A stretch of DNA of 64,000 bases from a virus. This document shows, one piece after another, positions 31,152 through 64,000 of the stretch. A program made the translations under genes and the position numbers. The notes under the pieces were generated by a model. The model worked only from the letters and a program-made list of their open reading frames with translations. It was not told where the DNA came from and ran no database searches. The DNA lies in the IMG/VR virus record IMGVR_UViG_3300025117_001212. The stretch is one strand, 5' to 3'. Numbering within the stretch: position 1 is the first letter of the stretch; the number at the start of each line of letters is the position of its first letter.

Positions 31152-32090
31152 ATGAAATTTACTAAAGAACATAGAAGAAATATATCAGAATCGAAAAAGT
31201 GTTTTTATGCTGAAAATCCAGATTCTCATCCTAATCTTGGATTGAAGATGTCAAATGAACAAAAGAAGAAAATTTCTGAAAGTTTAAAAAGATACTTTGC
31301 CGAAAATCCAAGCAAGAAACCTTGGGGCAATAGTTATACTAAAGGTAGGAAACATTCTACAGAATCTAAAGAGAAAATGTCAAAGGCTATTAGAAAATAT
31401 ATTGATGGAAACAGAGAAGAAGCGTTTAGGGTGAGATCAAAGGCCCATAAGGGGCAAATTCCATGGACTGCTGGCAAACATTTGCCAGAAGAAATTAAGA
31501 AAAAAATTTCTGAAGGTAACAAAAGATATATGAAAGAACATCCCGAAGATAAAAGATGGATTGGAAGACATTATAAACATACTCCTGAGTCTTTAAACAG
31601 AATAAGAAAGGGAGTTGCAACGGCAATTTTAGAAGGAAGAATGGATAATGCTAGTCCAAGAAGATTTATTAAGGGTAATTACTATTCTAAGAAGAATGGT
31701 AAAACTTATCATTATCGTTCTTCTTATGAATTATGTGCATTCAAGTTATTAGAATCTATGCACATGGTTTGCGGTTATGAATATGAACCATTCCATATAA
31801 GATATGTTGATGAAAATGGTGAGCTTAGAAGATATATTCCTGATATTATGGTTAGACTTAAAAATGGAGATAAAGAATTAATTGAAGTAAGACCTAACAG
31901 ATATTTAAATGATGTAAGAACAAGAAAGAAATTCAAAGCTGCAAACAGGTTTTGTAAGAAACATGACATGACCTTTAGGGTTTGGACTGAAGATCAAGTT
32001 TTTAAACACAAGATACGAGAACCTGTAAGAGAACTGTCGATTGTGAGAACCCCTGTTAGGTTCTTGAGAACACCGATTAGGTTAAGCTAA
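31152..32090 (+). CDS. NUMOD3-repeat endonuclease with TnsA/T4 gp4-like PD-(D/E)XK domain (free-standing homing endonuclease-like)
   Basis: about five NUMOD3 repeats (e.g. KGRKHSTESKEKMS); YRSSYE, YEYEPF.I.Y, RRYIPD, LIEVRP. Confidence 0.8.
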   Translation: MKFTKEHRRNISESKKCFYAENPDSHPNLGLKMSNEQKKKISESLKRYFAENPSKKPWGNSYTKGRKHSTESKEKMSKAIRKYIDGNREEAFRVRSKAHKGQIPWTAGKHLPEEIKKKISEGNKRYMKEHPEDKRWIGRHYKHTPESLNRIRKGVATAILEGRMDNASPRRFIKGNYYSKKNGKTYHYRSSYELCAFKLLESMHMVCGYEYEPFHIRYVDENGELRRYIPDIMVRLKNGDKELIEVRPNRYLNDVRTRKKFKAANRFCKKHDMTFRVWTEDQVFKHKIREPVRELSIVRTPVRFLRTPIRLS

Positions 32091-36539: not shown

Positions 36540-38564
36540 ATGGTGTATACGGTCGGACCAGCGGTTGGTGGTAAGGCTCAGATCGGGATAGCCGAAGAAA
36601 CCCGATGGGGCTATCCAGTCAGCCCTCCTAATAAATTTTTTGAGTTTACTGGCGAAGGTATTGTCAGTGAATATACTAACTTGGTTAGTGCTTCACTACG
36701 TGCCGATAGAGCTATTCATAAACAACGAACAGGAACTGAACAAGCGGCTGGAGATGTTAGTTTTGAGTTGGCTCCTGCTGGATTTGGAACTCTTTTCAAA
36801 CATGCTCTTGGCCAAAAAAGAACCAAGAGGCGTGATATTTGTGCAATTCTTATTTATGTAGGCGCTGATACTGACGTAACTGTAACGATCGCTGCAAATG
36901 CCATCAGCTCTGCCGGAACTACTGCTGGGGATCATATAGATCTTACCTTGGAATATACCCAAGCAGAACTCATAGCCGCTCTTGATGCTCTTGATAGTTG
37001 GGTGTGTTATGCACCGTGGGGTGATAGTACTACTGGAGTTGGTGGTGGCTATTTTTCAGTTGCAGATAAGACTGCTGCTGTTAAGATTCCGGGTACTGCT
37101 GATTTTACCCCTAGTGGTGATCTTACAGGATTGGTAGAAACTTGTACTGCTATTGAAGTTCCTGCTTATGCGGCTGATACTACTCATATGAAGTTTTTCC
37201 CGATTTGGTATAATTACGGCATTTATGATCATGTGATTGATTGTGCTGCTGATGTTCCACAAGGGTTGACTCTTGAAGTTGGTCGTGATGTTGCAGCTTT
37301 TAATTATTATGGTGGTAGAGTTAATTCGTTGTCTTTGACTGTTAATCCTGGAGAGATTGTTACTGGAACAACTAACCTGATGTTTAAGGGAGCAAGTACA
37401 TGTGGCGATCCTGCTGTTGTTGGAAGTAATACGGGATGGATTGCTCCATTGTGTGCTGTTAGGGATGCATCTGGAAATGCCAGTTCTATTCTTGATATAA
37501 ATACGGCTCTTGATGTTTGTACTTATAAGACTGGAGCGGGTGCAAGTGAAGTTTGGAAATTTGGATTTTCCCTAAAACGTGGGCATCATACGCATGATGG
37601 TTATTACTATGATGTCTCTACTGTACAAGGATTTCTTGAATTTCTAGAGTATTATACTGGTTATTTTAATGTAATCAGGTATGGTGGAGTTGATGGATCG
37701 GTAGCCACAACGGGTCTTGCTGATGATACTTATGAACCTGTAACTACTTCTGACCAAGTTATCACAATGGCTATTAGTGCTACCATTAAACCTCTTTTCC
37801 GTGGAAATTATATTGGAACAGATGCAGGTAATAGTGGAACTGTATATGTGGATGTAAGCACTGGCGGAGCTATTGACGGGGCTCATGCTGTATTTAAGGG
37901 CTCTATTAATGGTTCTGATTGGTCTGCCACTACACTAATCACTAATAATACTTGGCATGATATTCTAAATGCTGCTGGAGTTGATACTGGATTTGATGTA
38001 ATGTTTCCAGGACTTAGCACAACTGTTCTTACAGCCAATGATACTTGGAGTATCAGTACCTTTAAAGATGAGGCAAGCGGAGCCACTTATGAAACTGAAG
38101 AATCATTTACAGGATTCCAAGGATCAGTTACTCTAGATCGTGGTGATGGTTCTGGTGCAGTAGCTCAAGGCATCATGGGTTTTAATTTCACACTTACTAA
38201 TAATCTCTATGGCGATAAATATCATATTGGTGAGCGACAAAGAGCTGCTCTGGTTCCTCAACAAAGAACTGTTGAAGGAAGCATGTCTCTAGAGTTTGAC
38301 GATCTTGATATTTATCGTATGTTCGTTAATCAGGTTGCTGGTGACTTGACAGTTAATCTTATATCTGACGAATATATTGGTTCAAGTTCTGTTCATTATG
38401 GATTGGTCTTGAGATTTCCTAATATCAAATATTCAGGAACAACTCCAGTTGCTGGAGGTCCTGACATCATTACAACTGATTATCCTTTTAACGCATTGTA
38501 TGATGATGATGCTTCAATTCCTGAACTTAGAATGACCTTGACAAACAACACCGCTCACATCTAA
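36540..38564 (+). CDS. major tail tube protein with large insertion
   Basis: IGIAEETRWG, G.V..L.L ... RTVEGSMSLEF, YSGTTP ... LTN. Confidence 0.85.
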   Translation: MVYTVGPAVGGKAQIGIAEETRWGYPVSPPNKFFEFTGEGIVSEYTNLVSASLRADRAIHKQRTGTEQAAGDVSFELAPAGFGTLFKHALGQKRTKRRDICAILIYVGADTDVTVTIAANAISSAGTTAGDHIDLTLEYTQAELIAALDALDSWVCYAPWGDSTTGVGGGYFSVADKTAAVKIPGTADFTPSGDLTGLVETCTAIEVPAYAADTTHMKFFPIWYNYGIYDHVIDCAADVPQGLTLEVGRDVAAFNYYGGRVNSLSLTVNPGEIVTGTTNLMFKGASTCGDPAVVGSNTGWIAPLCAVRDASGNASSILDINTALDVCTYKTGAGASEVWKFGFSLKRGHHTHDGYYYDVSTVQGFLEFLEYYTGYFNVIRYGGVDGSVATTGLADDTYEPVTTSDQVITMAISATIKPLFRGNYIGTDAGNSGTVYVDVSTGGAIDGAHAVFKGSINGSDWSATTLITNNTWHDILNAAGVDTGFDVMFPGLSTTVLTANDTWSISTFKDEASGATYETEESFTGFQGSVTLDRGDGSGAVAQGIMGFNFTLTNNLYGDKYHIGERQRAALVPQQRTVEGSMSLEFDDLDIYRMFVNQVAGDLTVNLISDEYIGSSSVHYGLVLRFPNIKYSGTTPVAGGPDIITTDYPFNALYDDDASIPELRMTLTNNTAHI

Positions 38565-39240: not shown

Positions 39241-40092
39241 TTGAAATTTCCTATTTTAAAAAGATTAGATCCAAGAACCATCTTTGATTATGTTTGTAAG
39301 GATGATGACGATGATACTCCAACTATTTTTAAAATAAAACCTCTAACTGTTTTTGAATTTAAGTCTTGCGAGGAGGGTTCTCCTGATAGGGAAAACAATC
39401 AGCAACAATTAGGAGAATTCACCTTGAAGATTTTGCAAGCTGGCCTTGTTGGATGGGATAACTTCGTTTATGAAAATGGCGAAGTTATCCCATTTTCTTT
39501 TTCTAACATAGGTGCAATTAAGTATGATAATCAGGTTGAAATATTTGAAAACATAATGGATATTTCTGATGTTAGTGAAGAAGTTGCTAATGAAGTAAAA
39601 TTTGTCACAAGATGGTCTGATTTTGTTAGCAAATCAGATAAACAAGATTTGTGGAGTTGTGATACTTGTATTGAAAGAAAATTGTTCGTAGCTAGGAATT
39701 GTAATGGAGATATGCCCAATAGATGTCTTAATTGCAATATAGAAACAGATAATAGCAAGTGTCCCAAGTGTGGGAAGATTACTAAACCTCATTTCAAATT
39801 TATTTTTCCTGGAGATAATCCAAAGAATAGTTCTATTACAAGATGTCCTGTTTCGATGCTATCATCAAGGGCTGTTAAGTTAACTAATCTTATTAATTAT
39901 ATAGAATCATCTAAGTCTCTTCCTTTCGGAGGAGGAGCTTTAGACCAGACTAATTATTTCTATACTGCTAGGATGATAGTGCTATCAGAACAAAGTGATA
40001 TAATGAAACAAGAGTTGAAGCAAAAGTCACAACAGAAAAGCCCTTCAGTAACAAGAACAAGACCGCCTAGTCGTAGGATTGGTAGGAGATGA
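39241..40092 (+). CDS. tail assembly chaperone GT-like, paralog of the preceding gene, with zinc ribbon
   Basis: DYVCKDD, GLVGWDNFVY; C-terminal LPFGGGALDQ; CLNC...CPKC. Confidence 0.7.
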   Translation: MKFPILKRLDPRTIFDYVCKDDDDDTPTIFKIKPLTVFEFKSCEEGSPDRENNQQQLGEFTLKILQAGLVGWDNFVYENGEVIPFSFSNIGAIKYDNQVEIFENIMDISDVSEEVANEVKFVTRWSDFVSKSDKQDLWSCDTCIERKLFVARNCNGDMPNRCLNCNIETDNSKCPKCGKITKPHFKFIFPGDNPKNSSITRCPVSMLSSRAVKLTNLINYIESSKSLPFGGGALDQTNYFYTARMIVLSEQSDIMKQELKQKSQQKSPSVTRTRPPSRRIGRR

Positions 40093-40095
40093 TTC

Positions 40096-43000
40096 ATGGG
40101 AAAAGTAGAATCAAGAGAAATTAAATTCCTTGTTACTCTTAGAAATGAGATGCAATCAGGAGTGGCAGGATTTAAGAAAGATATAAAAGAAATAAATGAT
40201 GCTGTTGCTTCTGTTAGGGGAGCAATGGAAGATCTACAGTCCATGACTGAGATGAGCGGTAAGGGAGGGGCTACTGCTTTTGGAACAGCTACGACTATGT
40301 TGAAAGAATTTATAACAACTCTTGGAGAGTTTGGTAAAAAAGGTAAAGAAAAAAGTACCCTAGAAGCATTTAAATCCATATCTACATCATTCGAAAAAAT
40401 ATCCAAGGGCATAACAGTGGCTGAAAATTCTATGACTGTTATTACTAGAGTTGTAGAACAGTTAAACAAAGCTGCTGGATCGATAAAAGATCCTGCCGGC
40501 ATTTCAAGAGTAACAGAAGTTTTTAAAGAGATGGCAGGGATAGTTAAGGCTCTTTCTGCTGGAGGGGATACTGAAAAAGCATCTACATTTTTTAAGTCCT
40601 TGTCTGAAGCTGCTGCAAGATTCGGGCAGGGCGGAACAATGGTCACAGCAATCAAAGATATAGCTAATACTAAAGATGAATTAACTTCAGTGGCTTCTCT
40701 TTTAGAAAAAATTGTTACATTGATGTCATCTCCTGGGTTGGAAAGTGGGGCTTCTGCAATGGCTAGAGCTCTAACTGGAATTGGTGTGGGTGGAGGAGGT
40801 GGTGCTCCATCATCGTATATTAATTGGTCTGGAATGTCTGGAGGGATGATAGAAAGATTATCCAAAGATGTAGAAAAAAGAGGTATTGATAAAGAAACCA
40901 TTAATGCATTTGATAAATATATAAATAAAGTTAGATTTGTTTCACAAGAAATGGATGCTTTTGTGAAGCAAATGGTTGATAAGAAATCAGGAGATATATC
41001 AGGATTAGTTTCTCAAATGGAAAAAGGTTTATCAGGAGTTTTTTCAGCATCAGAACTTTCCAGCATTGCCACTAAATCAACATATGCCGAAGCAATTCCT
41101 GGTGAAATACAGTCTTTGGGATTGTTCAGAGGTACTGTTACTCATAAGGCCATTGAAGAAACTCTTAAACATTTAGGGGTTGGAAAAGGTGGCATAATTG
41201 GCGAAAGTTTTATTGAAATGATAACAAGTCAAGCATATAAGACTGAACAATTTGCTATCAATATGGCTAATGAAGCCAAGTCAGCTTCAGCAGCATTTAA
41301 GGCAATGGTTTCAGAAGGATTAAGCAAAGGAGGTGTTAATCCAGAAGCTCCTAAGATTAAAGAACAAATAGAAAGAGCTGCCGGAAATCTAGAAAGAGAA
41401 TTTATTACGTGGAGTAGGAATTTCTTTCCAATGCTAAGAGAAAGAGCTGTTAAAGCATTTGGAGGTGACATAGATGCCATAGCCAAAGGGTTACAATCAA
41501 CAAGAATTGAACTTGAGAAACCAATTCAAGCCTTAACTATGATTAAGCCCGGTGGCGGATTAGATATACAAGGAGAACTGAAAGAATCAGCCCAGAGATA
41601 TTTGAGAACAACTATTAAGCAAATGCGAACAGTTATAGGAGATAAAAGTCAATTTAAAGAATTCATGACTACTTTGAAACAAAGAGGATTAGCCATAACA
41701 GGAACCTTAGATTTGCTGGTTGATTTTGGCAAGCAATTTGAAAAATTAATTATTGATTGGAAAACAGGATATGCCGATCCAAAAGGCATGTACACTGTTT
41801 TACAACAGATGATCTACCAAATAGGAACTGCGAGACAATTAGGTGTTCCTATTGGCAAGGTAAAATCATTAATAGGAGCAACTAGAACTGGAACTTTCTC
41901 CCCTAGTGGGATGGATGTGTCTGCCACTGAGGTTAAAGGAGTTGCTGAAAGTTTTCAAAAAGAAAATGAACTTGCTAAAGAAAATAGTAAACTTACAGAA
42001 GAACAAGTTAAGTTAATGGATCAACTCATAGCTAGAAATAAAGAATTAGAAGCTATTAAACAGAGATTGAATTCTCTTGAAAAAAGTAGTAGAGCTTCTG
42101 CTCAAACTAAAGTAGCTTCAGTTGCGGCAATTGGAGGAGGAGCTGCTGGTGGAGCTGGAGGAGGTGGCCCAATAAGTGAAGACCCTGAACGATTAAATAG
42201 AATTGTTGTTATATATGATAATATGTCAACTGTAATTGAAAGATTACAGATGGTTAAAAGAGATGCTGCACTTGCAACATCAAAATTTACAGAAGCATTG
42301 ACCTCGGCATATTACAGACAAGAGATGTTAGGTGAAAAGACTGATATTACTTCAGCTAGGATGACTCAATATTCAAATATCATATCTAGCATAGCAACAA
42401 CTTTTGGTAAATTTTTCATTGTACAAGAGGGTGGAGCTTCTGTTCAAGATAGAGTATTTGCACAATTTGAAAGATTTAATAATATAGGTGGAGCTGTCGC
42501 TAAGAATTATGAGAAAATAAATACTCTAATTGAGAAGAGAAATAATCTGTTGTCTAGAGCAAAATATGAATTAGGAGAATCTACAAATAGAAATGCTTCA
42601 GGAGTTAAAACTGGAACCGTAGAAGATTTTTATGCCACAATGTCTAAGGTTGGAGCTGGAGATACTAGTAAAAAGTTAAAAGTTCTTGCTTTGAAAATGA
42701 GAGAATTTGATGTGCAAATAGGCATAGCTGAAAAAGATTATAAGGAATTTACCCATGCTCTTATTGCCGGAGCTAATGGTAGTGATGAATTTAAATTATC
42801 TACAGAAAAATCAACAGAAGAATTGAAAGAATTTTTTAAAATATTGAGAGAAGTAGATGAAGAATTTGCTAGGGCACCTTCTAAGATAGGAACTGCTGAA
42901 CAAGCAATACAAAGAATTACTCAAGCCATTGAGAGGCAGAGAACTGTTGCCCTTAAATCGCAACTTCCTGGTGGTGGTAGTTTTCAAACTATGATAAAAG

Positions 43001-46000
43001 ATACTAGTGGGTTTGTTAATGAAATTAATCAGAAATGGGGAGGTATAACTTCTAAATTTGGATTTACAGATCCGTCAAAAGCATTTGGCCTTGAACCTGG
43101 AAGGATGGCTACAACAATTAGAGCTGTTACTGATTATATTAATGAATTAAATGCCAAAAGGAAAGTACAAGAAGAATTGATGTCTAGATATGAGCTTAAA
43201 CTTAAAAAGATAGAAATAGAAGAAGGTAAATCATCTGCAATATATATGAAAAAAGCTAAGGAACTTGATATTCTTTCGAGAAGTTATAACGCAATATATA
43301 ATTCATTAAGTGGATATGAGGATAAATTAAGGAAGTTACAACAAGTTCAAAGACTTGAATCTGAAAGAACTGCTGAGCACTTCAGAGGAGATATTCGTAC
43401 TACCTTAAAGGGATTCCAAGACATGATGCGATCGCAAGCAGCATGGGTTCTTGGATATGGTGTAATGTTTGGAGCAATTCGTGGTTTTAAAGATGCTTTA
43501 ATGTCAGTAGTTACAGTACAGCATGAATTGGCTCGGGCAATGAGGACTGCTAGGCAAGAAGGCATGGCTCAAGCTGAAATATTTAATATGTTTAGTGGCG
43601 CTTCAACAACTGCTATGCTGAAATATGGGCAGGGTATTGAAAATATAAGCGAGGCTCTTTATCAGTTAGGAAGTGCAGGGTTAAATGCAAAAGAAAGTGT
43701 TGCAGCGTTAAATTCTACAATGGATGCTATTGTAGCTTCAGAAGATGAAGCTCAATCTATGACTAAATTAACAGCTTCTGTGTATAATAATTTCGCAGAA
43801 AGTATTAAAGGAGCTACCACTCTTGAAGAAAAATTTAAATATATAAATGACATCTTAATTGCAACATTTGATATTCATCAGGTTGAATTAAATGAATTAA
43901 GAGATGGTTATCAACATTTAATGGCTATGGGTAAGGCTAGTAACCTAACATTTCTAGAAATGTCATCAATTCTTGGTGTATTAAATGATCATTTAATTAG
44001 ATCTGGTATGGCTGGCCGTTCCGTGCAAAGGATGTTAGCTAAAATTTCAGATAGTCCAGTTGCGTTTGCAAAGGCTTTTGGCGTAGCTATGGATCCAGAA
44101 GCTCCTCTTAATTTAATAGAAATACTTAGAGAAATTGGTACAAGAATGGATAAAGGAGCCCTGAGTATAAGTCAGGTTGGTGATGTTTTTGATAGAATGG
44201 GAATAATAGGAGCTAAGGGATTTATTTCATTAGTTAGAAATATTAATAAAGTTGATGAAGATATTCAAAGGCTTAAAGATACTTCTGTAGATTCTGCTGA
44301 AAGAATGGCGCAAGTTATGTTGGATAAGCCTGATGTAGCTTTTGGTAGGATGAAACAAACCTTAGCGGCATTAATTAGAGAAGGTTTTGAACCTCTAGTG
44401 AAAATTATGCAGATTACCGCCACTGGAGTGTCATTAGTTGGATATGAGTTCAGTTCAATGAAGGCAGAATGGCCTAAAGCAATTGGTGGAGTTGCACTAA
44501 ATGTTGTTGGATTATCTTCTGCATTTCTTGTTTTAACTTCTATTATTGGTGGTCTTAGGAATAGATTTGCAAGAGGCACTAGGGATTGGCAAACCTATTA
44601 TGATGTGGTTGGCAAATTCAATGAAAGAATAATTAACCTAAAAAGTGGGTTTTCTGCACTTGGGTCTCCATTTCAAATTGCTGGAGTCTCTAAGATGACG
44701 ACGAATATATCCAAATTAAGATATGCTTATGATTCATTAGCCATTGCTGTTATGGGTTCCGTTGGGGCTTTTACTATATTTTTGTCATTGTTAGGAGCTT
44801 ATGTTATCTACAAATTTATTGATTGGTTAATTGTAACTAATAAAGAATATACTGAATCAATAAATAAAATGACGCAAGCAATAGATGTTCATAAACAAGA
44901 AATAGATGCTCTTCAGAATAAAATTAACTCCGTCAAAGGATTAGATGAAGCTTCGAAGGCTTATAAGAAAACTCTTGAGGATACATTAAAATTAAGAAAA
45001 GAAAATATGTTGTATGATATTGAAGAAGATATGAAAAGCATGTTTAAAGATATGCCAAAAAAGATAAAAGAAACTGGTGATGAATTAGATAAGGTTAGGA
45101 AACAAATTGAAATGTCGTCAAAATTAGGTTTTAAAGATTCAGGAGCTTTATTTGGGATAGGTCAAGCTCCGGACATTAAGAAAACAGCTAAGGCTAGTAG
45201 AGAATTTGCTACTCAAATGCTATCAGCCCTTACTATTATGAAAGAAAAATTAAAGTCAATGCGTGAAGATCCTGCTTTTAGAGAACTGGCTGACAAATTA
45301 TTAAGTGATTTTAATATGAAGTTTACCTTCATAATTCAAAATCTTAAGAAACTAGCTGCCGAGGCCGGAAAAGATTTAGGTGGTAAGGTTTTCGAAGAAG
45401 CACAAAAATCGTCAAAAGGTATTATAGATTTGTTGAATACTGCAAGAAATTGGGCTAAGGAGTCAGGAAAAGAATTTGGATCTCTAATTGCTGAAGAAAT
45501 AGCTATTGGAGAAACAGGTCCTATAACTAGATTGAAAAGAGATATTAAAGAGCTCAAAAGAAAAATTGGCAAGGAAACAGAAGGGTGGGGAATTAGTGTT
45601 AGCACTGATGATATTGGTAATTTAGCAGAATATTTAAGAGAACAAGGCAAGACTGAAGGTGTTTATAAAGATTTAATTGGTTTAATAGAAAAATATAAAG
45701 ATGCTATGGTTAAATTGGGAGTTACAACTAAAGAAGTTGAAAATTCATCTCGTACACTAAATAAATCTTTTGAAGATTTAATTTATACTACTGAAAGAAA
45801 TATTGATAAGACCATATCTGGTTTCGTTCAAGATAATCTTGTTAAAATACTTTTTTCCGCAGATGCTGAAGCTATTGAGAAACAAAGACAAGCTAAGAAA
45901 ATGGTTGAAGATTTTGTTCTTGATTGGGTTAAAGCCACTGATGATATTAAACAAAAGACATTTGAAATGTTTGGTGAATCTGTAGGTGCTAAATCAGTGG

Positions 46001-47535
46001 GGGATTATTTTGATAAAAGAATGGTTCAAATTACGAGATATCAATATTTAATTGAGGAACTGGCTAATAGAGAAGCTGATCTTGCTAAAAAAGATGTAAT
46101 GCGTCAAATGTTAGATAGGGAGAATAAATCAGCATTATCACATGAAAAATCAATGCAAGATCTCCAATATAGAATGAAAGAATATCATACTGTTGAAGAA
46201 GTGGTTGCTAAAGATATGTCTGATCGTAAGAATGAAGTAACGGCCATTGTTGATAAAATAAACGAACAAAGTAGGGCTATTGAAAATTTAAAATTAGTGC
46301 TTTCTACTTTAAGTGAAGATGAAGTTAAGAGGATTGATGCTATTTCTAAGAGTATAGAATATTATGAAAAAGAAATTGATAGGTTGAAGAAAGAATTAAA
46401 ACAACGTAAAGAAACAAATCAAGTAGAAACTGAAAGACTAACAATTCAAGAAAGAATTAGGCAAGCTCAAGAAAAATTTAATATGGTAATTAAATTATCA
46501 AATGACTTGATAGAGTATGGTGATGTTCTCTATGGAAGATCATTTGCCACTCAAGGATTTATTTTACAGCAAATGGCAGAAAGATTGCAACTTGAGAAAA
46601 CTCTTCAAGATATGATTGCCCGTGGATTGATTAATGAGACTGATAAAGTAAGAATTCTAGCTGATTTCAAATCAGATATGGCTCGTCGTGAGTATGAATC
46701 AAGAGTTGATTTGGAGAATAAAATTCTTAATCTCACATTAGAAAGATTACAAAAACAGGCTGAAGCAGAATATAGAGGATTCAAAGAAACTGAAGGACAA
46801 TTTGATTGGTTCTATACGTCTCTTAAGGCTGGAACTTATGGGTCTTGGTTGGAGGTTGAAAATATTTCAAAAGCGGTTACAGATGGTACTAGATCAGCAA
46901 TAGATATGACTACTGGTATGATGACTGACATGACAATGCAATTTGTTCAAGGCAGTAAGGATGGCTTAGAAGGATATAAACAAATTCTAGCATCTACATT
47001 GCAAGAAGCTGGAAAGGAATTAACAGCTTATGGCATGAAATTGTTGTTCATCTATGTATTAAAAAAGGCTATGGGAATGGTTGCTGGAAGTGCTGGAGGT
47101 TCCGAATATGGTGCTAATTTTAATTATTCTTTTGGAGGGGGTGGTACTCCTGTTGAAATGGCCGGAGGTGGTATTCTTAGAGGAGGAATAAAAGGTAGGG
47201 ATTCTATTTTAATTCTCGGTTCTGATGGTGAGTACATGATGCCTAAAGATTCAGTAGATTACTACGGAGCTGATCTAATGGAGCGGCTTCGTAGAAAAGA
47301 TATCAAAAAAATGCAAGATGGTGGTTCTGTTGGCGGAATTAGCAAAACTACCGTTTCAACTTCTGATGGTGAAGAATCACAACCAACAACTATAATTGAA
47401 AATCATTTTCATATTCAAGCAATGGATGCGGCCTCATTTAGTTCATTTGCTAAAAAACATTCTGGTATATTTGGAGCGGCTGTTGTTCATGATTATCGCA
47501 ATGATGGTATTTCTCGAAAGGGTTTGAAAGGATAA
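40096..47535 (+). CDS. tape measure protein with embedded PD-(D/E)XK nuclease domain
   Basis: TP901-type core near 43.5-44.4 kb (EALYQLGSAGL); C-terminal MAGGG...GRDSILILGSDGEY; nuclease motifs at 41.1-41.8 kb. Confidence 0.9.
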   Translation: MGKVESREIKFLVTLRNEMQSGVAGFKKDIKEINDAVASVRGAMEDLQSMTEMSGKGGATAFGTATTMLKEFITTLGEFGKKGKEKSTLEAFKSISTSFEKISKGITVAENSMTVITRVVEQLNKAAGSIKDPAGISRVTEVFKEMAGIVKALSAGGDTEKASTFFKSLSEAAARFGQGGTMVTAIKDIANTKDELTSVASLLEKIVTLMSSPGLESGASAMARALTGIGVGGGGGAPSSYINWSGMSGGMIERLSKDVEKRGIDKETINAFDKYINKVRFVSQEMDAFVKQMVDKKSGDISGLVSQMEKGLSGVFSASELSSIATKSTYAEAIPGEIQSLGLFRGTVTHKAIEETLKHLGVGKGGIIGESFIEMITSQAYKTEQFAINMANEAKSASAAFKAMVSEGLSKGGVNPEAPKIKEQIERAAGNLEREFITWSRNFFPMLRERAVKAFGGDIDAIAKGLQSTRIELEKPIQALTMIKPGGGLDIQGELKESAQRYLRTTIKQMRTVIGDKSQFKEFMTTLKQRGLAITGTLDLLVDFGKQFEKLIIDWKTGYADPKGMYTVLQQMIYQIGTARQLGVPIGKVKSLIGATRTGTFSPSGMDVSATEVKGVAESFQKENELAKENSKLTEEQVKLMDQLIARNKELEAIKQRLNSLEKSSRASAQTKVASVAAIGGGAAGGAGGGGPISEDPERLNRIVVIYDNMSTVIERLQMVKRDAALATSKFTEALTSAYYRQEMLGEKTDITSARMTQYSNIISSIATTFGKFFIVQEGGASVQDRVFAQFERFNNIGGAVAKNYEKINTLIEKRNNLLSRAKYELGESTNRNASGVKTGTVEDFYATMSKVGAGDTSKKLKVLALKMREFDVQIGIAEKDYKEFTHALIAGANGSDEFKLSTEKSTEELKEFFKILREVDEEFARAPSKIGTAEQAIQRITQAIERQRTVALKSQLPGGGSFQTMIKDTSGFVNEINQKWGGITSKFGFTDPSKAFGLEPGRMATTIRAVTDYINELNAKRKVQEELMSRYELKLKKIEIEEGKSSAIYMKKAKELDILSRSYNAIYNSLSGYEDKLRKLQQVQRLESERTAEHFRGDIRTTLKGFQDMMRSQAAWVLGYGVMFGAIRGFKDALMSVVTVQHELARAMRTARQEGMAQAEIFNMFSGASTTAMLKYGQGIENISEALYQLGSAGLNAKESVAALNSTMDAIVASEDEAQSMTKLTASVYNNFAESIKGATTLEEKFKYINDILIATFDIHQVELNELRDGYQHLMAMGKASNLTFLEMSSILGVLNDHLIRSGMAGRSVQRMLAKISDSPVAFAKAFGVAMDPEAPLNLIEILREIGTRMDKGALSISQVGDVFDRMGIIGAKGFISLVRNINKVDEDIQRLKDTSVDSAERMAQVMLDKPDVAFGRMKQTLAALIREGFEPLVKIMQITATGVSLVGYEFSSMKAEWPKAIGGVALNVVGLSSAFLVLTSIIGGLRNRFARGTRDWQTYYDVVGKFNERIINLKSGFSALGSPFQIAGVSKMTTNISKLRYAYDSLAIAVMGSVGAFTIFLSLLGAYVIYKFIDWLIVTNKEYTESINKMTQAIDVHKQEIDALQNKINSVKGLDEASKAYKKTLEDTLKLRKENMLYDIEEDMKSMFKDMPKKIKETGDELDKVRKQIEMSSKLGFKDSGALFGIGQAPDIKKTAKASREFATQMLSALTIMKEKLKSMREDPAFRELADKLLSDFNMKFTFIIQNLKKLAAEAGKDLGGKVFEEAQKSSKGIIDLLNTARNWAKESGKEFGSLIAEEIAIGETGPITRLKRDIKELKRKIGKETEGWGISVSTDDIGNLAEYLREQGKTEGVYKDLIGLIEKYKDAMVKLGVTTKEVENSSRTLNKSFEDLIYTTERNIDKTISGFVQDNLVKILFSADAEAIEKQRQAKKMVEDFVLDWVKATDDIKQKTFEMFGESVGAKSVGDYFDKRMVQITRYQYLIEELANREADLAKKDVMRQMLDRENKSALSHEKSMQDLQYRMKEYHTVEEVVAKDMSDRKNEVTAIVDKINEQSRAIENLKLVLSTLSEDEVKRIDAISKSIEYYEKEIDRLKKELKQRKETNQVETERLTIQERIRQAQEKFNMVIKLSNDLIEYGDVLYGRSFATQGFILQQMAERLQLEKTLQDMIARGLINETDKVRILADFKSDMARREYESRVDLENKILNLTLERLQKQAEAEYRGFKETEGQFDWFYTSLKAGTYGSWLEVENISKAVTDGTRSAIDMTTGMMTDMTMQFVQGSKDGLEGYKQILASTLQEAGKELTAYGMKLLFIYVLKKAMGMVAGSAGGSEYGANFNYSFGGGGTPVEMAGGGILRGGIKGRDSILILGSDGEYMMPKDSVDYYGADLMERLRRKDIKKMQDGGSVGGISKTTVSTSDGEESQPTTIIENHFHIQAMDAASFSSFAKKHSGIFGAAVVHDYRNDGISRKGLKG

Positions 47536-57690: not shown

Positions 57691-58113
57691 ATGTTTTATA
57701 TCGTAGTTTTGGCATTTGTGTTTTTCTGGACGCCCGCCTTCGGGCAGACGGACGTGTCTGCGGCTAAGGAATTTTCATTTGGTCAGTATTCCCTGCCAGC
57801 GCTCCTGACCATATTCACAATGGGTCTTTTCAGTTTCTGGCAGGTGAGCGACAGGCTCAAGCCGCCCATTACACTTACGTTAGGAATCGGCCTGGGGGTT
57901 CTATGGATTTTCTACGCGGGCGCTACTTGCACGGTCCCCACCGTCGTCGATTCGGTTTTCTACGGTGCGATCCAGGGATTCGCGGCCATCGGAATTTATG
58001 AGACGCAGGACAAGGCCCGGTCTCCGACCACCAAGGAACGAAAGGCGGAGAAGGCAGCTGCCAAACGAACCATCAACGAGATTGTTGACGAAAGGGAGGA
58101 TGCACAGCAATGA
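57691..58113 (+). CDS. holin-like membrane protein with signal peptide
   Basis: signal peptide then three hydrophobic segments, charged C-tail. Confidence 0.6.
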   Translation: MFYIVVLAFVFFWTPAFGQTDVSAAKEFSFGQYSLPALLTIFTMGLFSFWQVSDRLKPPITLTLGIGLGVLWIFYAGATCTVPTVVDSVFYGAIQGFAAIGIYETQDKARSPTTKERKAEKAAAKRTINEIVDEREDAQQ

Positions 58114-58562
58114 GAATGGGCATAAGCAACGTTCGCTACTTCGACTGGAAGGAGATAACCGTCTGGTTTTGCCGGGTGGTCATGGTCGCCGTGTTCATTG
58201 CTGTCATAGCCATGACGTTCGGTTGTTCAACCATCCGGACCGGTGCCATATATCTTTCCGAGGAGGAATATCGTAACTACGAAACCTCCAAAGAAGTAGC
58301 CCAGACCTGGCTCCTGTATTGGGAATTCCAGTCTGGTATGATCAAGCAGGCGCTCGGTAATAAGGTCCCGATGGATGTTGCCAAGATGATGGATGAACTG
58401 GACAAATGGGCCAAATTGCCTACAGTACAGCAGACAGATGAGATTCTAGGAAGGGTGTTAGTGGCTAGGCTGAAGGTGCTGAGTGACGTGATGAAACTGC
58501 TCTATGATATTTATGCACCTGGATTGTTTGAAATACTTGTGAATATAGGAGGGAAATTATGA
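58110..58562 (+). CDS. putative lipoprotein (spanin-like position)
   Basis: hydrophobic stretch ending in lipobox-like MTFG-C. Confidence 0.55.
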   Translation: MRMGISNVRYFDWKEITVWFCRVVMVAVFIAVIAMTFGCSTIRTGAIYLSEEEYRNYETSKEVAQTWLLYWEFQSGMIKQALGNKVPMDVAKMMDELDKWAKLPTVQQTDEILGRVLVARLKVLSDVMKLLYDIYAPGLFEILVNIGGKL

Positions 58563-58927
58563 AGTATGTAATGAGTTTTCTTTTGTTGGTTTTTAGTTGT
58601 TCGTTTGTTTTTGCCTCTCCTTTCCTTGTTGCTGATCCTCAACAGGACGTTACCTATTATGAGGTGCAGCGAGATGTGAAGGATATGACCGGCACTGTAA
58701 TTTCAACAGTAATTGAACCGTCTTATCCTCTGGTGGTAACAGGAGGTGTTCAATTTCATCATGATTTATTTGGCCTCCCTATAGGGCAACATTCCATGCG
58801 AGTGATTGCTGTAAGGGTAGAAAACAGGGAGGGCGGAGCGACGTATGCACGTAGCGATCCGGTCCCTTTCGTTTACGAGTTAACATCAGGTCCTGGGCCG
58901 TCAGGTCTAAAGCTATTGATGGAATAA
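58559..58927 (+). CDS. secreted small Ig/Fn3-like protein
   Basis: signal peptide MKYVMSFLLLVFSCSFVFA; SPFLVADP ... GLPIGQHSMRVIAV. Confidence 0.6.
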   Translation: MKYVMSFLLLVFSCSFVFASPFLVADPQQDVTYYEVQRDVKDMTGTVISTVIEPSYPLVVTGGVQFHHDLFGLPIGQHSMRVIAVRVENREGGATYARSDPVPFVYELTSGPGPSGLKLLME

Positions 58928-58965
58928 TTAGGTGGAAATTAATAGTTGATTGAAGGAGAATAATT

Positions 58966-59190
58966 ATGAAAGCAATATTGGTCACATTAAATGATGATAT
59001 GACAGATGAACAAGTACAGGCACTTTGTGGAGCCTTACCTTTTGTCATTAAGGGTATTGTGTCTGCGGCCGTTTATAGTCAAGATAATCAAGCTGATGCT
59101 AGGAAGGCTGCATACATCAATTTATTGAGATCTATTTTTGGTGACGATTTTGTTAAAAAGATGATTGAATCAGGGAAGTTAGAGGTATGA
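58966..59190 (+). CDS. hypothetical protein
   Basis: SD AAGGAG. Confidence 0.65.
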   Translation: MKAILVTLNDDMTDEQVQALCGALPFVIKGIVSAAVYSQDNQADARKAAYINLLRSIFGDDFVKKMIESGKLEV

Positions 59191-59224
59191 TTATTTTGCT
59201 TATTTGTTATATTGGGAGATAGTT

Positions 59225-59368
59225 ATGTTTAAATCGTTACCTGCCAAAGAAATTCTACTTGTTATTTTAGGTGGATTATTTGGTTGGATGCTTGGGAAAC
59301 TTCCGATTAATGTTGTCTATGGAGTAATGGCTATAGCTATTATTTTAATCATTATTGTTATGAAATGA
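59225..59368 (+). CDS. small two-TM protein, 47 aa (not in ORF track)
   Basis: SD GGGAG; ILLVILGGLFGWMLG ... VYGVMAIAIILIIIVM. Confidence 0.55.
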   Translation: MFKSLPAKEILLVILGGLFGWMLGKLPINVVYGVMAIAIILIIIVMK

Positions 59369-59394
59369 ATCATTTAAAACATAGAGGTAATAAA

Positions 59395-60207
59395 ATGAGA
59401 ATTATAGGTATCCCGCACAGGATAGGTTTTGCCATAGTCCTCTTGGTCGGCATCCTCCAGCTTGTCCTGTACGGGTTTTCTTTTGGCCAGACTATTACAC
59501 CACCACCAGTGAGCCAGACTACTTATACTCCAGTTCCATCCAGCCTGCTCGTATCGGTCAAATACTCCGACCACCTCGGGTTATACAAAATCCAGTGGTA
59601 TCAGGGAGAGTGGAACAATCCAAGCTCAAGCGTCCCCGTGCCCGATTTCTGGCGGATCTACGTTCCGCCTGGAACCATTCATCTGGGGATCACGGTTCTG
59701 AACCCTACGAGCGGGGCGGGTTTGCTCGCGAGATATGGGCAGTCTCCGGGTCCAATTACATTGCCGGAGAATTGGGATCATTATCCGTGGAAGCCCCCTG
59801 CTCTATTGGACCAGCTCAAGGCTCAGAATTGGGCGGTAAGGATTCCGGCGCCTACGGGATGCGCGACGGCCCTGACCTGCATCGACCGATGGATCTACCC
59901 ACCCGTTGAGTTTGGCGGATGGATATTCGGGGCAACACTCGGATCGGCAAAGGCGATGCGGGTTGAGATAATGATAGACAGGGCGACGTTCGACGAGTGG
60001 CAGTCCAGGACCTCCTTTGATTTCATGGGTAACCCGCCGCTCGCTACTGAAACGGAAGACCCGGAGCTCAAAGTCATAATGCACCTGTACCCGGAGCATG
60101 ATCCGGACCTGAAAAAGGGCGTCATCAATTTCCACCGGCCCGGGACCAAGCTGATTTACAAGATACCGCGCAATGCCGGGCGTGCGGTATTCAAGATTGA
60201 AAGGTGA
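59395..60207 (+). CDS. secreted protein with PPC-like beta domain
   Basis: signal/TM N-terminus; DFWRIYVPPGTIHLGITV ... LLARYGQSP. Confidence 0.6.
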   Translation: MRIIGIPHRIGFAIVLLVGILQLVLYGFSFGQTITPPPVSQTTYTPVPSSLLVSVKYSDHLGLYKIQWYQGEWNNPSSSVPVPDFWRIYVPPGTIHLGITVLNPTSGAGLLARYGQSPGPITLPENWDHYPWKPPALLDQLKAQNWAVRIPAPTGCATALTCIDRWIYPPVEFGGWIFGATLGSAKAMRVEIMIDRATFDEWQSRTSFDFMGNPPLATETEDPELKVIMHLYPEHDPDLKKGVINFHRPGTKLIYKIPRNAGRAVFKIER

Positions 60208-60443
60208 CGAAAATGACCCTCGAAGAAGAAATCGGGAAGAAGATCGGGCGCCTTCACGCTGAAGTCGCGCTCCTGTCCTTGACCGTTGAAGCCCTTACCG
60301 GGATGGTATCGGCAGCCTTCGCGGTCCTGTCTGAGAACTTCCCGGCCGAAAAGGTTGACCCGCATATTGCAAAATTCAGGAAAGAGAAAGAAGTGAAGGA
60401 CGATGACCTGTTCAGAAAGTATTGCACCTTTAACGACGGGTGA
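60204..60443 (+). CDS. hypothetical protein
   Basis: coupled ORF. Confidence 0.55.
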   Translation: MTKMTLEEEIGKKIGRLHAEVALLSLTVEALTGMVSAAFAVLSENFPAEKVDPHIAKFRKEKEVKDDDLFRKYCTFNDG

Positions 60444-60447
60444 CGAA

Positions 60448-60651
60448 ATGAAAGACGATTGGCACAAGGCTTACGATTGGAATCCGGAGAAGCAGAACTT
60501 TTGCATGAGCAAATATGGCGTATCGATCAGGCGGGCAATGGCTGAAGGGTTGGTTATGTCTCACGAGTCCATGTTTTTCTACAGGACTCAGGACCAGCGC
60601 CAGCGGGCGGAGATTGAGCAGATCCCCATTGAGCGGTGCGGAAATGCGTAA
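60448..60651 (+). CDS. hypothetical protein
   Basis: MKDDWHKAYDW ... RCGNA*. Confidence 0.55.
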   Translation: MKDDWHKAYDWNPEKQNFCMSKYGVSIRRAMAEGLVMSHESMFFYRTQDQRQRAEIEQIPIERCGNA

Positions 60652-60835
60652 ATGTAAATGCAACTGCCATGATCCTAACTTCCGGCGCGACACCGATACT
60701 CTTGAGCACGCCAACTGCGATGAGTGTCGTAAAGCCCTGGAAGGGGAAGGTGCACGGTTCGTGAAATATGAGGATTGGCTAGGTAAATTTATGTCAAGCG
60801 GTGGTCAGCGCCCATTTAGGTGCGGGAATGCGTAA
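60644..60835 (+). CDS. small Cys-rich protein
   Basis: MRKCKCNCH ... CDEC ... RCGNA*. Confidence 0.55.
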   Translation: MRKCKCNCHDPNFRRDTDTLEHANCDECRKALEGEGARFVKYEDWLGKFMSSGGQRPFRCGNA

Positions 60836-60944
60836 GCTCGACCTGGGCCTTCTCGGCATCGTCGTGTGGTTCACCCTGCTTCTCATGGCGGCGCTTCTCG
60901 GAATTGGATACGGGAGACTTTTGACATGGCTAGACTCGCTCTAA
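60828..60944 (+). CDS. small TM peptide, 38 aa (not in ORF track)
   Basis: MRKLDLGLLGIVVWFTLLLMAALLGIGYG. Confidence 0.45.
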   Translation: MRKLDLGLLGIVVWFTLLLMAALLGIGYGRLLTWLDSL

Positions 60945-63900
60945 AATTCATATTTGCCCTTGCCCTCCTCTCCCTGCCCTCGTTGGCTTTCGCCACCGAC
61001 TATTATCTATCCAACGCCGGAAACGACACGACAGGCGACGGGTCGAGCGGCAACCCCTATGCCACGCTCACCAAGATGCGGAGCATCAGCCCTGGCGCCG
61101 GGACGCACAACATCTATCTGCGGCCAGGCGATACTTTCACAGGATACCTGGATAGTGATAATTGGACGGTTGGGTCTATCATTACGATTCGCGAAGCTGA
61201 TTTTGGTGGCAAATCACTTGCGGTTGACGGGAAATGGACAATATCTGGTGGGGAAGGGTCAACCCCCTCAGGCTCAGGTACGGCCTACGGATCTCATATC
61301 GTAGTCGGGATAGCCGTAAATATCACCATTCAAAATGGTCAATTTATCAGCCAGGATTGGTTTCCTAATTCTAAAGTTTTTGCAGTGCGGTTGAACCGAG
61401 TTGTCAACTACGCAATTATCGACTGTATTTTTGACGGGATGCTCGGGACTACTATTGATAGCGAAACACATTACTACAACGGGGCATTGATAGTTGCTTA
61501 TGCAACTGCTCCGGGTTCCATTACAGGCAACTTCATACAATATTGGGGGCCGCCGTGTTTATGGGCTACTCCTGAGATTCCAGCAGGGGCGACAGACTAC
61601 GAGAGTATAGATGCCAGTGGTATTGCTCTTGTTGGAATTAAGACGGCGGGTGCTTCAGTTACTATTTCTGGAAACATTGTTTACAACGTAAATGGTGACT
61701 CTGTAGTTGAAGAAAATGTGACCGTTCCAGTAACCATCACGAACAACATTTTTAAGAACTTTGGTGAAAATGCTATCGATCTTAAAGGGGGTCAGAACAA
61801 TCATATTTACGCAAACTGGATGTATCGTGATCCAGCCTTTGTTGGTATGGGCGGCTACCCCATAGCGAGTAACCCGCGTAATAATGGTGTTGTTCAGTTT
61901 CTGTACAAAGCCCCGGACTTTGCTCAGAACAACCTCGTAGAAGAGAATCTGATCGGTCCGACTGACACAAGCGCTTTTGCCTACAAAGATAATGTTTCCA
62001 ATAATACAGTCCGAAATAATGAGATCATAGACGCGAAAACAGGCGTCTACTTCTGCTGTTCGTCTGAGGCTTCGACCGGGAGCGGCGTGGGCAATGCCTC
62101 ATACAACAACCGCTACATAGGGTCAACCGGAAACTTTGTCTATTCATTGGGGTACAGGGGTGAAATAACATTTGAAAATGAGACGTTCTACTCCGATGAC
62201 GCGATGGGAGTAGGACTTTACCTAACTTGGTTCGACGGTACGTTCCGAAATAGTATCTTCAGGATGAACGATGCCGATAGTGAAATGATGAACCTGGATG
62301 CCAATTCCGCACCCACATTTGAGTATAACATCTGGAGAAATGAGTATGCAGGTGATCAGAACGTTGTGGTCTGGGCAGGGCACACGACCAGAGACGAAGC
62401 GGCACAGGCCGGGTGGAACGGAGAGAGTATCGCGGACAACGAAATATTCGGAGATCCCGGCATTGATTCAAGCGGGTATGCGACCGAGGTGGGATCAGCG
62501 GTGGTCAACTCTGGTAAAGCGCCTACCTTTGCCGTACAAGGTCTCCGCAACACATCGGTCTGGACCTATGGAGCTGTCTCGGTTGTGAAAATAGGTAGAG
62601 CTGATAACGGTGGGGCGGATAGGGGTGCCGGGGAATTCCCGGAAGATGAACCACCTCCACCTGTAGGGGGAGCCGACGTTCCAGTGGGGACCTACGCCTT
62701 CGCCTATAATGCGGATTATACCGATGACACCGACGAGGCGTGGACCGCAGATGGAGCTACCCACACGTCTGGCACGGTTGCGGCCGGCGTGGAAATAGCC
62801 GGGGCCTACGGGACTGCCGGGAATGGGGTGCGGTTCAGCGTTGCGAACGAATTTATCAAATGGACGATCAGCGTTACGCCAGACGAATTGACCGTTTGGG
62901 GAAAAATAACGCCTGAATCCCTCAATTCAGGCAATTCAACAATTTGGCATTTGTGGCAAGACGGATCAAATCAGATCTATGCCTATTACAGGTCAACAGG
63001 CGTCATAACCCTGCGATATGAAGGGCAGGGCAATGTCGTTTCTATGAACTCTACGCATACGATTTCTGCGGGAACTGAGGTAACTCTCGGTTTCAGGATA
63101 TCGTCAACCACCCATTGCAATGAAGATGCCACCGGGTGCCTCTCAATAAAAGTTGGCGCGAACGATTGGGAGAACGACGCCAATGCTGTGGCCGTCACCG
63201 CTTTTGCGGCCGGTACACGATACTTCTATCTTGGGGAATCTGACCAGACAACGGTTGGGCTCACCAACCCATGGCACGGCGATGAATGGAGCATCATTGA
63301 TTCCTACAACGCGGCAGAGCCCGACTGGACTCCCGCCGATGTCACCGCCCCCACCATGGACGCTCGTGGCGTGTGTTCTGACGCCTCCTGTACGGCCTGC
63401 ACGGAGGATCTTACGACTTCTTACGTATTAGGTGATAGTTTCAGGGTTTGCGGAGAGCTGTCAGAGGATTCAATCGTAACCGAGAGCCCGACGTGGGCTT
63501 TTACTTGTGGAACAGTAACAATTTATTTAGACTATTTTGAGAAAAAAGATATTGGAGGTATTAAGTATTTAACAGCTAGAGCTACAGTGTCTGCAAAATC
63601 TCGATGTTCAAATCCTGTGCTGGCTGAGATGGTTGGTGGAGAGATTAAAGATGGGTCTGGCAATGAACTAGACAGGGCAGGAACTGCTGGAATATTTACG
63701 ACAGGCACTATTACAATAGGTGGTAAAGGAGAATGGAGTGTAGGAACATTCGTAGATTATGATGGAGATGAATATCAAGGTGAATATCCAAATTTTACAA
63801 CTCTTAGAGCATCCATTACTAAGGTTGACGGTGATCAATATGGTCTTGGTATTGTTACTGAACCAGGAGCTCTGAATCTTGGTAACGATGACTGTACAGA

Positions 63901-64000
63901 GGCCGATCCCTGTATTATTACAGGTATTGGGGAAACATGGACTGGAGATATTACTTTTGGCGATTGGTGGGTAATATCTAAAATTAAACATGCTTCTGAT
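60926..64000 (+). CDS. large secreted right-handed beta-helix (pectate-lyase-like) protein with extra beta-sandwich domains; 3'-truncated (not in ORF track)
   Basis: open for 1025 codons to the window end; signal peptide MARLALKFIFALALLSLPSLAFA-TDYYLS; GNDTTGDGSSGNPYAT; many I..N.. repeats. Confidence 0.85.
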   Translation, partial: MARLALKFIFALALLSLPSLAFATDYYLSNAGNDTTGDGSSGNPYATLTKMRSISPGAGTHNIYLRPGDTFTGYLDSDNWTVGSIITIREADFGGKSLAVDGKWTISGGEGSTPSGSGTAYGSHIVVGIAVNITIQNGQFISQDWFPNSKVFAVRLNRVVNYAIIDCIFDGMLGTTIDSETHYYNGALIVAYATAPGSITGNFIQYWGPPCLWATPEIPAGATDYESIDASGIALVGIKTAGASVTISGNIVYNVNGDSVVEENVTVPVTITNNIFKNFGENAIDLKGGQNNHIYANWMYRDPAFVGMGGYPIASNPRNNGVVQFLYKAPDFAQNNLVEENLIGPTDTSAFAYKDNVSNNTVRNNEIIDAKTGVYFCCSSEASTGSGVGNASYNNRYIGSTGNFVYSLGYRGEITFENETFYSDDAMGVGLYLTWFDGTFRNSIFRMNDADSEMMNLDANSAPTFEYNIWRNEYAGDQNVVVWAGHTTRDEAAQAGWNGESIADNEIFGDPGIDSSGYATEVGSAVVNSGKAPTFAVQGLRNTSVWTYGAVSVVKIGRADNGGADRGAGEFPEDEPPPPVGGADVPVGTYAFAYNADYTDDTDEAWTADGATHTSGTVAAGVEIAGAYGTAGNGVRFSVANEFIKWTISVTPDELTVWGKITPESLNSGNSTIWHLWQDGSNQIYAYYRSTGVITLRYEGQGNVVSMNSTHTISAGTEVTLGFRISSTTHCNEDATGCLSIKVGANDWENDANAVAVTAFAAGTRYFYLGESDQTTVGLTNPWHGDEWSIIDSYNAAEPDWTPADVTAPTMDARGVCSDASCTACTEDLTTSYVLGDSFRVCGELSEDSIVTESPTWAFTCGTVTIYLDYFEKKDIGGIKYLTARATVSAKSRCSNPVLAEMVGGEIKDGSGNELDRAGTAGIFTTGTITIGGKGEWSVGTFVDYDGDEYQGEYPNFTTLRASITKVDGDQYGLGIVTEPGALNLGNDDCTEADPCIITGIGETWTGDITFGDWWVISKIKHASD

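Follow-up and report, generated by a model that had tools for sequence, protein, structure and literature searches.

What a nuclease-like segment is doing inside a phage tape measure protein (TMP) is the question raised by a 64,000-nucleotide stretch of viral DNA (hereafter the window), which forms part of the 114.6-kb, ~82% complete IMG/VR virus record IMGVR_UViG_3300025117_001212. TMPs are commonly regarded as molecular rulers that also form channels, now and then with an added cell-wall hydrolase. Within the window, a single uninterrupted open reading frame (ORF; 40096–47535, + strand) encodes a protein of 2479 amino acids (P0001), in which a preliminary description of the DNA had picked out five ordered motifs of the RecB/Cas4 nucleases; all five are present, at the coordinates listed below. 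Our analysis identifies the embedded segment, residues ~340–600, as a RecB-like PD-(D/E)XK (PDDEXK_1) domain whose active site is, judging by its sequence, intact, and we predict it to be a metal-dependent RecB-family nuclease without an iron–sulfur (Fe–S) cluster. We put at roughly 60% the probability that it is delivered with the virion and acts on DNA at entry.

The protein that houses the domain is a TMP, as the preliminary description had held. Residues 1173–1331 match the Pfam family PhageMin_Tail (55.9 bits against a cut-off of 33.2), five PHROG families annotated as tail length tape measure protein (28, 167, 3547, 4704 and 3779) match the ORF, and the C-terminus carries a weak TMP_C match (PF24165, residues 2443–2463, 17.3 bits, under the cut-off of 27) together with PHROG matches to TMP C-termini. 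The late-module gene order agrees: small and large terminase, portal, protease, major head protein, a 674-residue tail protein, two ORFs in the chaperone slot, the TMP, distal tail proteins and a 1533-residue J-like protein. The source is an uncultured, ~115-kb siphovirus-type groundwater phage. Sequencing runs holding the same DNA come from groundwater and soil metagenomes of five studies, with no RNA dataset among the runs listed as holding the window's DNA. Logan contigs from three runs, among which the source sample may itself be present, cover 39900–42400 with zero differences; since these contigs are contiguous and identical, the fusion of TMP and nuclease is not an assembly chimera.

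The family assignment begins with PDDEXK_1 (PF12705), which scores 24.1 bits against the whole TMP and 29.8 bits (E = 7e-7) against residues 300–640, for a cut-off of 22. The features that define the domain are as follows.

41113–41895 (+): PD-(D/E)XK (PDDEXK_1, RecB-like) domain, residues ~340–600, assigned by Pfam PF12705.
41131–41160 (+): motif I helix G-T-x-x-H-x-x-x-E (G346, T347, H350, E354), GTVTHKAIEE, residues 346–355; G, T and H invariant in nine sequences.
41173–41499 (+): helical insertion between motif I and the first core strand, residues ~360–468; AlphaFold helices at model residues 61–157, with a predicted local distance difference test score (pLDDT) of 85–93.
41506–41526 (+): first core strand with invariant E474, IELEKPI, residues 471–477; strand at model residues 161–174.
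41689–41718 (+): motif II G-x-x-D with invariant D539, LAITGTLDLL, residues 532–541; strand at model residues 223–234.
41746–41769 (+): motif III D-x-K (D554, K556) followed by T-G, LIIDWKTG, residues 551–558; D and K invariant.
41800–41817 (+): Q-x-x-x-Y helix (Q570, Y574), LQQMIY, residues 569–574; helix at model residues 256–273.

The domain thus has the RecB-family features of a catalytic aspartate on the second core strand (D539), a D-x-K pair on the third (D554 and K556), an N-terminal GxxxH...E helix and a C-terminal QxxxY helix. The order GTxxHxxxE, E, GxxD, DxK(T/S)G, QxxxY is shared with the nucleases of PF12705 (the RecB C-terminal domain, AddA/AddB, Dna2 and the phage Cas4-like/DUF2800 exonucleases), as are the length of ~260 residues and the helical region between motif I and the β core. 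Unlike these, the window's domain lies inside a virion tail protein, being neither attached to a helicase nor free-standing, it has no Fe–S cluster, and its helical insertions are longer (124 residues from H350 to E474 and 65 from E474 to D539). In a feature search of the ESM Atlas (top score 0.96), PDDEXK_1 is present in more than three-quarters of the 100 nearest clusters. The PHROG exonuclease families 69 and 298 match the window's TMP weakly, and the NCBIfam models of AddB and Cas4 give weak matches to a few relatives. Motif I aligns with that of a bona fide, Pfam-positive PDDEXK_1 protein encoded in a Brevinema metagenome-assembled genome (MAG), and a Cas4-like Brevinema protein has IVYDWKTS as its counterpart of motif III.

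In a long, low-complexity helical protein, five short motifs could resemble a nuclease by chance, and some of the comparisons lean that way: PDDEXK_1 is matched with no more than a modest Pfam score; when hhalign set the family alignment against each of two Brevinema PDDEXK_1 sequences, motif I was the one part aligned (probability <3%); and phmmer and profile searches of the PDB sequences returned nothing relevant. We nevertheless regard a chance resemblance as highly improbable, given that 7/9 relatives match PDDEXK_1 independently, at 23–31% identity and with a best E value of 2.4e-8, that all five of the ordered motifs are invariant, and that the Atlas neighbours are almost all PDDEXK_1.

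Of the joint RecB/Cas4 label in the preliminary description, the RecB half stands and the Cas4 half falls. Cas4 (PF01930 / TIGR00372) belongs to the same superfamily and shares the core motifs, and phage-encoded Cas4-like nucleases exist; the window's domain is not one of them, because residues 300–640, like the entire TMP, hold no cysteine and hence cannot supply the four-cysteine Fe–S cluster. The TMPs of 2477 (P0003) and 2788 (P0004) residues likewise contain none, and that of 3273 residues (P0005) contains one. The Cas4-like Brevinema protein, in contrast, has the cluster cysteines beside otherwise matching motifs. Cas4 profiles do not match the window's TMP, and one of the nine relatives matches TIGR00372 (E = 0.0039). 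Other identities were rejected as well. There is no match to the lambda exonuclease/YqaJ family (PF09588) at E ≤ 1; a RecBCD/AddAB-type helicase-nuclease is excluded by the lack of a helicase domain in the TMP, the sole recognised helicase of the record being UvsW-like and far away; and the protein does not belong to the polyvalent class, as it has a single enzymatic domain and no peptidase match in Pfam or PHROG.

How widely the arrangement occurs bears directly on whether the domain belongs to the TMP. When 1.84 billion representative proteins were searched exhaustively with phmmer, the domain turned up in giant TMPs only, with four real relatives: the three TMPs of 2477, 2788 and 3273 residues, and a 560-residue sequence, probably a fragment, that ends inside the domain. 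The match position is the same in all; a fifth match was dismissed as a repetitive, unrelated protein. IMG/VR was searched with an alignment of the conserved TMP core, the domain alignment being without any conserved stretch of 7–10 columns, and this recovered eight close loci (L003–L010) and two distant ones (L011 and L012). The domain is present in each of the eight close loci, including L009 and L010, which a five-sequence hmmsearch profile overlooked and where BLAST and inspection located it. In the distant TMPs L001, L002, L011 and L012 the domain profile matched nothing, L001 and L012 being cut by contig ends. Word-indexed homologue searches returned only the protein itself when the domain region was used and no stand-alone relative when the domain alignment was used, and tblastn against 50,697 GenBank phage records gave no match to the domain. 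Altogether, about nine lineages, all metagenomic, carry the domain at the same site between two glycine-rich linkers, and no close TMP relative in which the region can be read is without it.

Conservation within this set points to a functioning active site. In the nine-sequence domain alignment (A3, 23–31% identity), G346, T347, H350, F401, E474, G531, G536, D539, D554, K556 and Q570 are invariant. The full-length alignment has 21 invariant positions within the first 700 residues, nine of them RecB-family motif residues; these include Y574, which in A3 lies one column out of register in P0005 and L009. Over the full-length alignment, the domain has 26% identity and its flanks 16–21%. The preliminary description had judged the catalytic residues intact, and they are also invariant across diverged sequences, which we consider the strongest evidence that the domain may be a working enzyme.

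The same data speak to the possibility that the domain is a selfish insert, intein-associated or a free-standing homing endonuclease, which is removed from the TMP or irrelevant to it; the preliminary description had itself set an intein-like or mobile insert against its interpretation. Inteins are reported to occur in actinophage proteins (bioRxiv 10.1101/2025.01.02.630785), and the phage record holds several HNH genes of homing type. Set against this, no Hint, intein or LAGLIDADG match was found at E ≤ 1, and the absence of cysteine extends to the whole protein; the site is fixed in the ~9 lineages, where domain and TMP have diverged in step; and RecB-like PDDEXK_1 is not a family of homing endonucleases. 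A selfish insert is, in our assessment, barely credible.

Three further observations concern the relatives. In the 2788-residue TMP (P0004), the C-terminal ~350 residues contain the TMP motif GG-x-x-x-GG-x-x-G-x-D-S-x-P-I ... GEY-x-x-P-x-D-x-V-x-x-YG ... LR three times, compared with once in the window's protein. A contig of the Brevinema andersonii MAG (DYKD01000004.1; L002:3635-18136) has a 4834-residue open frame that is a distant relative of the TMP core at 29% identity and in which the profile detected no RecB-like domain. A 3.2-kb contig binned with a Nanoarchaeota MAG (L001; JAHIVQ010000095.1) encodes a TMP core 35% identical to that of the window, and is probably a phage fragment in that bin.

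The structure of the domain was predicted with AlphaFold. From a single sequence, residues 300–640 gave an all-helical, unusable model (pLDDT 42), whereas the nine-sequence alignment gave a model with pLDDT 68 and a predicted template modelling score (pTM) of 0.65. Its elements run from the motif I helix through a confident helical insertion to the E474 strand, then through a second helical insertion to the D539 strand, a strand just ahead of D554-x-K556, the Q570/Y574 helix and two more strands. As modelled, this would be the canonical order of the PD-(D/E)XK core (αβββαβ), with each motif on its expected element. A prediction of a three-copy complex of the domain scored 0.00, below the mark, and is uninformative either way.

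What the domain might do depends on where it sits in the TMP, whose remaining features are these.

40096–47535 (+): TMP gene, 2479 residues, from the ORF, Pfam, PHROG and gene order.
40096–40782 (+): N-terminal region, residues 1–229, without a Pfam or PHROG match; 20% identity among relatives; neck-proximal by analogy with 80alpha.
40783–40815 (+): glycine-rich linker 1, residues 230–240; glycine-rich equivalent in P0003 and P0004; 60% identity in the full-length alignment.
40816–42132 (+): linker-bounded module housing the nuclease, residues 241–679; two glycine-rich borders; collinear in all relatives.
41896–42132 (+): charged helical, coiled-coil-like stretch, residues 601–679; sole match a weak SbcC-like coiled-coil PHROG.
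42133–42171 (+): glycine-rich linker 2, residues 680–692; kept in P0003, P0004 and P0005.
43366–44355 (+): conserved TMP core, residues 1091–1420, including PhageMin_Tail at 1173–1331; 52–58% identity among relatives; Pfam.
44476–44562 (+): hydrophobic transmembrane-like segment 1, residues 1461–1489, from a Kyte–Doolittle scan.
44731–44838 (+): hydrophobic transmembrane-like segment 2, residues 1546–1581, from the same scan.
47422–47484 (+): C-terminal TMP motif, residues 2443–2463; weak TMP_C.

Between the linkers lies a module of ~440 residues, made up of a ~100-residue leader, the nuclease and the charged helical stretch; the glycine-rich runs on either side could be flexible hinges or processing sites. 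Two other phages bear on an enzyme in this position. In the neck of 80alpha, the three N-termini of the TMP abut the tail completion protein that caps the DNA end, the C-termini lie in the baseplate, and the TMP is thought to exit with the DNA (bioRxiv 10.1101/2024.12.10.627806). In the Thermus phage P23-45, the N-terminal part of the TMP gp96 (5002 residues) is an RNA polymerase that transcribes the pre-early genes, for which the authors proposed that transcription proceeds while the DNA threads through the TMP pore (PMC10770324). gp96 resembles the window's protein in being a giant TMP of a siphovirus whose N-terminal, head-proximal end bears a nucleic-acid enzyme, with the measuring and channel part after it; its enzyme differs in being a two-barrel RNA polymerase of demonstrated activity, where ours is a PD-(D/E)XK nuclease predicted from its motifs.

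By analogy with these systems, the best overall explanation, to which the probability of roughly 60% applies, would be that the module emerges beside the leading DNA end and that the nuclease acts on DNA at entry. The TMP would fill the tail tube in an extended state, probably as a trimer, and would be expelled ahead of the DNA at infection, its hydrophobic segments helping to build a membrane conduit. The N-terminal module would come out last, adjoining the leading DNA end, and the nuclease could then refold and act on the DNA during entry. As a first choice, the nuclease would work on the ends of the linear genome as it comes in (5′ resection leading to annealing and circularisation is one example); a second choice would be the cutting of host or competing DNA. 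Either way, the phage would gain a nucleic-acid enzyme before any gene expression, as P23-45 does with the RNA polymerase fused to its TMP. Virion delivery, action at entry and proteolytic release, all of them proposed in the preliminary description, are plausible because TMPs are ejected, because the 80alpha N-terminus lies by the DNA end and the P23-45 polymerase occupies the same end, and because glycine-rich linkers flank the module.

Several results weigh against an enzyme delivered in this way. The Pfam match spans only the C-terminal half of the PDDEXK_1 model. The β core of the predicted structure has a pLDDT of 55–70 only, and no significant fold match was obtained from Foldseek against the PDB, VIA-align (a wide search and a second look), the AlphaFold Database (AFDB) clusters, AFDB Swiss-Prot or the ESM Atlas; the high-confidence helical insertion dominated the fold alignments, and PD-(D/E)XK, AddB and Dna2 entries are over-represented at the head of the AFDB and Atlas fold lists, with weak scores, which is a hint only. 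The preliminary description had named the lack of a predicted nuclease fold as what would count against it; the order of secondary-structure elements in the model fits such a fold, and the fold searches gave it no significant support. Three folded domains of ~260 residues are too big for the lumen of the tail tube, so that the domain would have to travel unfolded, be cleaved from the rest or sit in another place. TMPs are made in bulk late in infection, and the nuclease could act then. Finally, when ~30 ORFs beyond the window were compared with PHROG and Pfam, in a record that is ~82% complete, none was recognised as an annealing protein or second exonuclease; the lack of a recognised single-strand annealing partner weakens the version based on end resection or recombination.

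Two of these points, late synthesis and size, lead to a different account, in which the nuclease works late in the producing cell: TMP in the cytoplasm would degrade host DNA or process replication and recombination intermediates, and the share that is packed into tails would be inert. Beyond the mismatch between the folded domain and the tube, this account gains from the fact that PF12705 matches nothing else in the 114.6-kb record, making the domain its sole PDDEXK_1 nuclease, and from stand-alone phage PDDEXK_1 proteins being usually recombination exonucleases (PHROG 69 and 298, "exonuclease"). It leaves unexplained, however, why the domain occupies one fixed TMP position in every relative; a partner annealing protein was not found, and the N-terminal TMP enzyme of P23-45 acts after ejection. 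We consider late action, although the main rival, unlikely.

The missing fold matches bear on another alternative, namely that the domain, no longer active as a nuclease, has been exapted for DNA binding or a structural role and holds or caps the genome end in the tail. A parallel exists in TP1, the nucleocapsid protein of the archaeal virus TTV1, which is reported to be Cas4-derived and DNA-binding (PMC4625639), and which shows that a Cas4-like fold has been recruited as a virion protein elsewhere; the position of the 80alpha TMP N-terminal region near the DNA end would also suit such a role. Against it stand D539, D554, K556, E474 and the Q...Y pair, which are invariant at 23–31% identity: the invariance of catalytic and metal-binding residues argues for a preserved active site rather than an inactivated fold. 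An inactive DNA-binding or structural role is, on balance, decidedly unlikely, and entry-stage action by a virion-delivered nuclease remains our preferred reading.

Other enzyme-carrying tail proteins set this nuclease in context. Tme, a TMP-like protein of the Streptomyces davawensis contractile injection system, likewise bears a DNA nuclease as cargo of a tail-like tube, with activity shown in vitro; it differs in belonging to a bacterial system and in having a C-terminal EndA-like nuclease (DRGH/H-N-N, ββα-Me fold) (PMC11126660). TMPs with peptidoglycan-hydrolase motifs, such as that of mycobacteriophage TM4, also have an enzymatic module used at infection, whose target is the cell wall and not, as predicted here, nucleic acid (PMC1796659). 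In the Chaseviridae coliphage phiEcoM-GJ1, the protein in the TMP slot (ABR68774, 1239 residues) matches Pfam YqaJ at 459–591 (43.9 bits) and SLT at 1045–1149 (48.5 bits), and so bears, midway along its length, a nuclease of this superfamily; that nuclease is, however, of the lambda-exonuclease/YqaJ family, without sequence similarity to the window's domain, and sits in a myovirus protein with an additional lytic transglycosylase domain. Polyvalent proteins share the concept of enzymes that enter with the invading DNA in one large polypeptide, and differ in combining several effector domains with a processing peptidase, where the window's TMP has one enzyme domain and no detected peptidase (Iyer et al. 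2017, PMC5512222); that paper makes no mention of tape measures.

In the literature searched, no phage TMP is described as containing a PD-(D/E)XK or RecB-like nuclease. The clade described here is a further, independent case of an enzyme-carrying tape measure, with a nuclease family other than the YqaJ of phiEcoM-GJ1. That a separate clade of phages conserves a RecB-type nuclease at the end of the protein where P23-45 has its polymerase suggests a broader use of the tail lumen for delivering nucleic-acid enzymes. These could act on DNA ends, help circularisation or give protection from host nucleases before gene expression, a poorly understood stage of infection. More speculatively, the TMP-borne nucleic-acid enzymes (RecB-like here, YqaJ in Chaseviridae and the P23-45 RNA polymerase) might form a general, undescribed class of "first-strike" cargo; in the present case, three tethered nuclease domains at the cytoplasmic mouth of the channel would either resect or trim the leading genome end, so that the genome can circularise or evade host nucleases that depend on ends, or make cuts in host or defence DNA ahead of phage gene expression. 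We offer this broader proposal tentatively, as a serious possibility and not as an expectation. The weight of the finding is limited in that the phage is uncultured and the function rests on analogy, while the domain assignment is solid. For annotation, it carries the warning that giant "tail" proteins can conceal enzymes.

The surroundings of the TMP gene complete the description. Upstream lie the 674-residue tail protein (36540–38564, +; phrog_290) and then two ORFs without family assignment in the chaperone slot; downstream follow phrog_778, phrog_329 and the J-like phrog_31. The 674-residue protein is unusually long and matches phrog_290 in two stretches, and its likeliest identity is a tail tube protein that has additional domains, perhaps of the Ig-like type. 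Elsewhere in the record (loci L014–L016) are genes for a DnaE-type Pol III alpha with a PHP domain, GyrA, an NAD-dependent ligase, thymidylate synthase, a PfkB kinase, a radical-SAM/SPASM protein, glycosyltransferases, RRXRR-HNH and NUMOD4-HNH proteins, a sigma-70-like factor, the UvsW-like helicase and TnpB (IS605 OrfB / Cas12f-like). A 312-residue ORF at 31152–32090 (+) matches the head-closure/connector family phrog_218 with its C-terminal half (residues 180–287) and the homing-endonuclease/endonuclease PHROGs 314, 655 and 15427 weakly with its N-terminal half, and may be a nuclease–connector fusion. Towards the end of the window, at ~58000–64000, the GC fraction climbs from about 0.35 to 0.46–0.50, and an ORF starting at 60866 crosses the window end, reaching 1307 residues in the full record.

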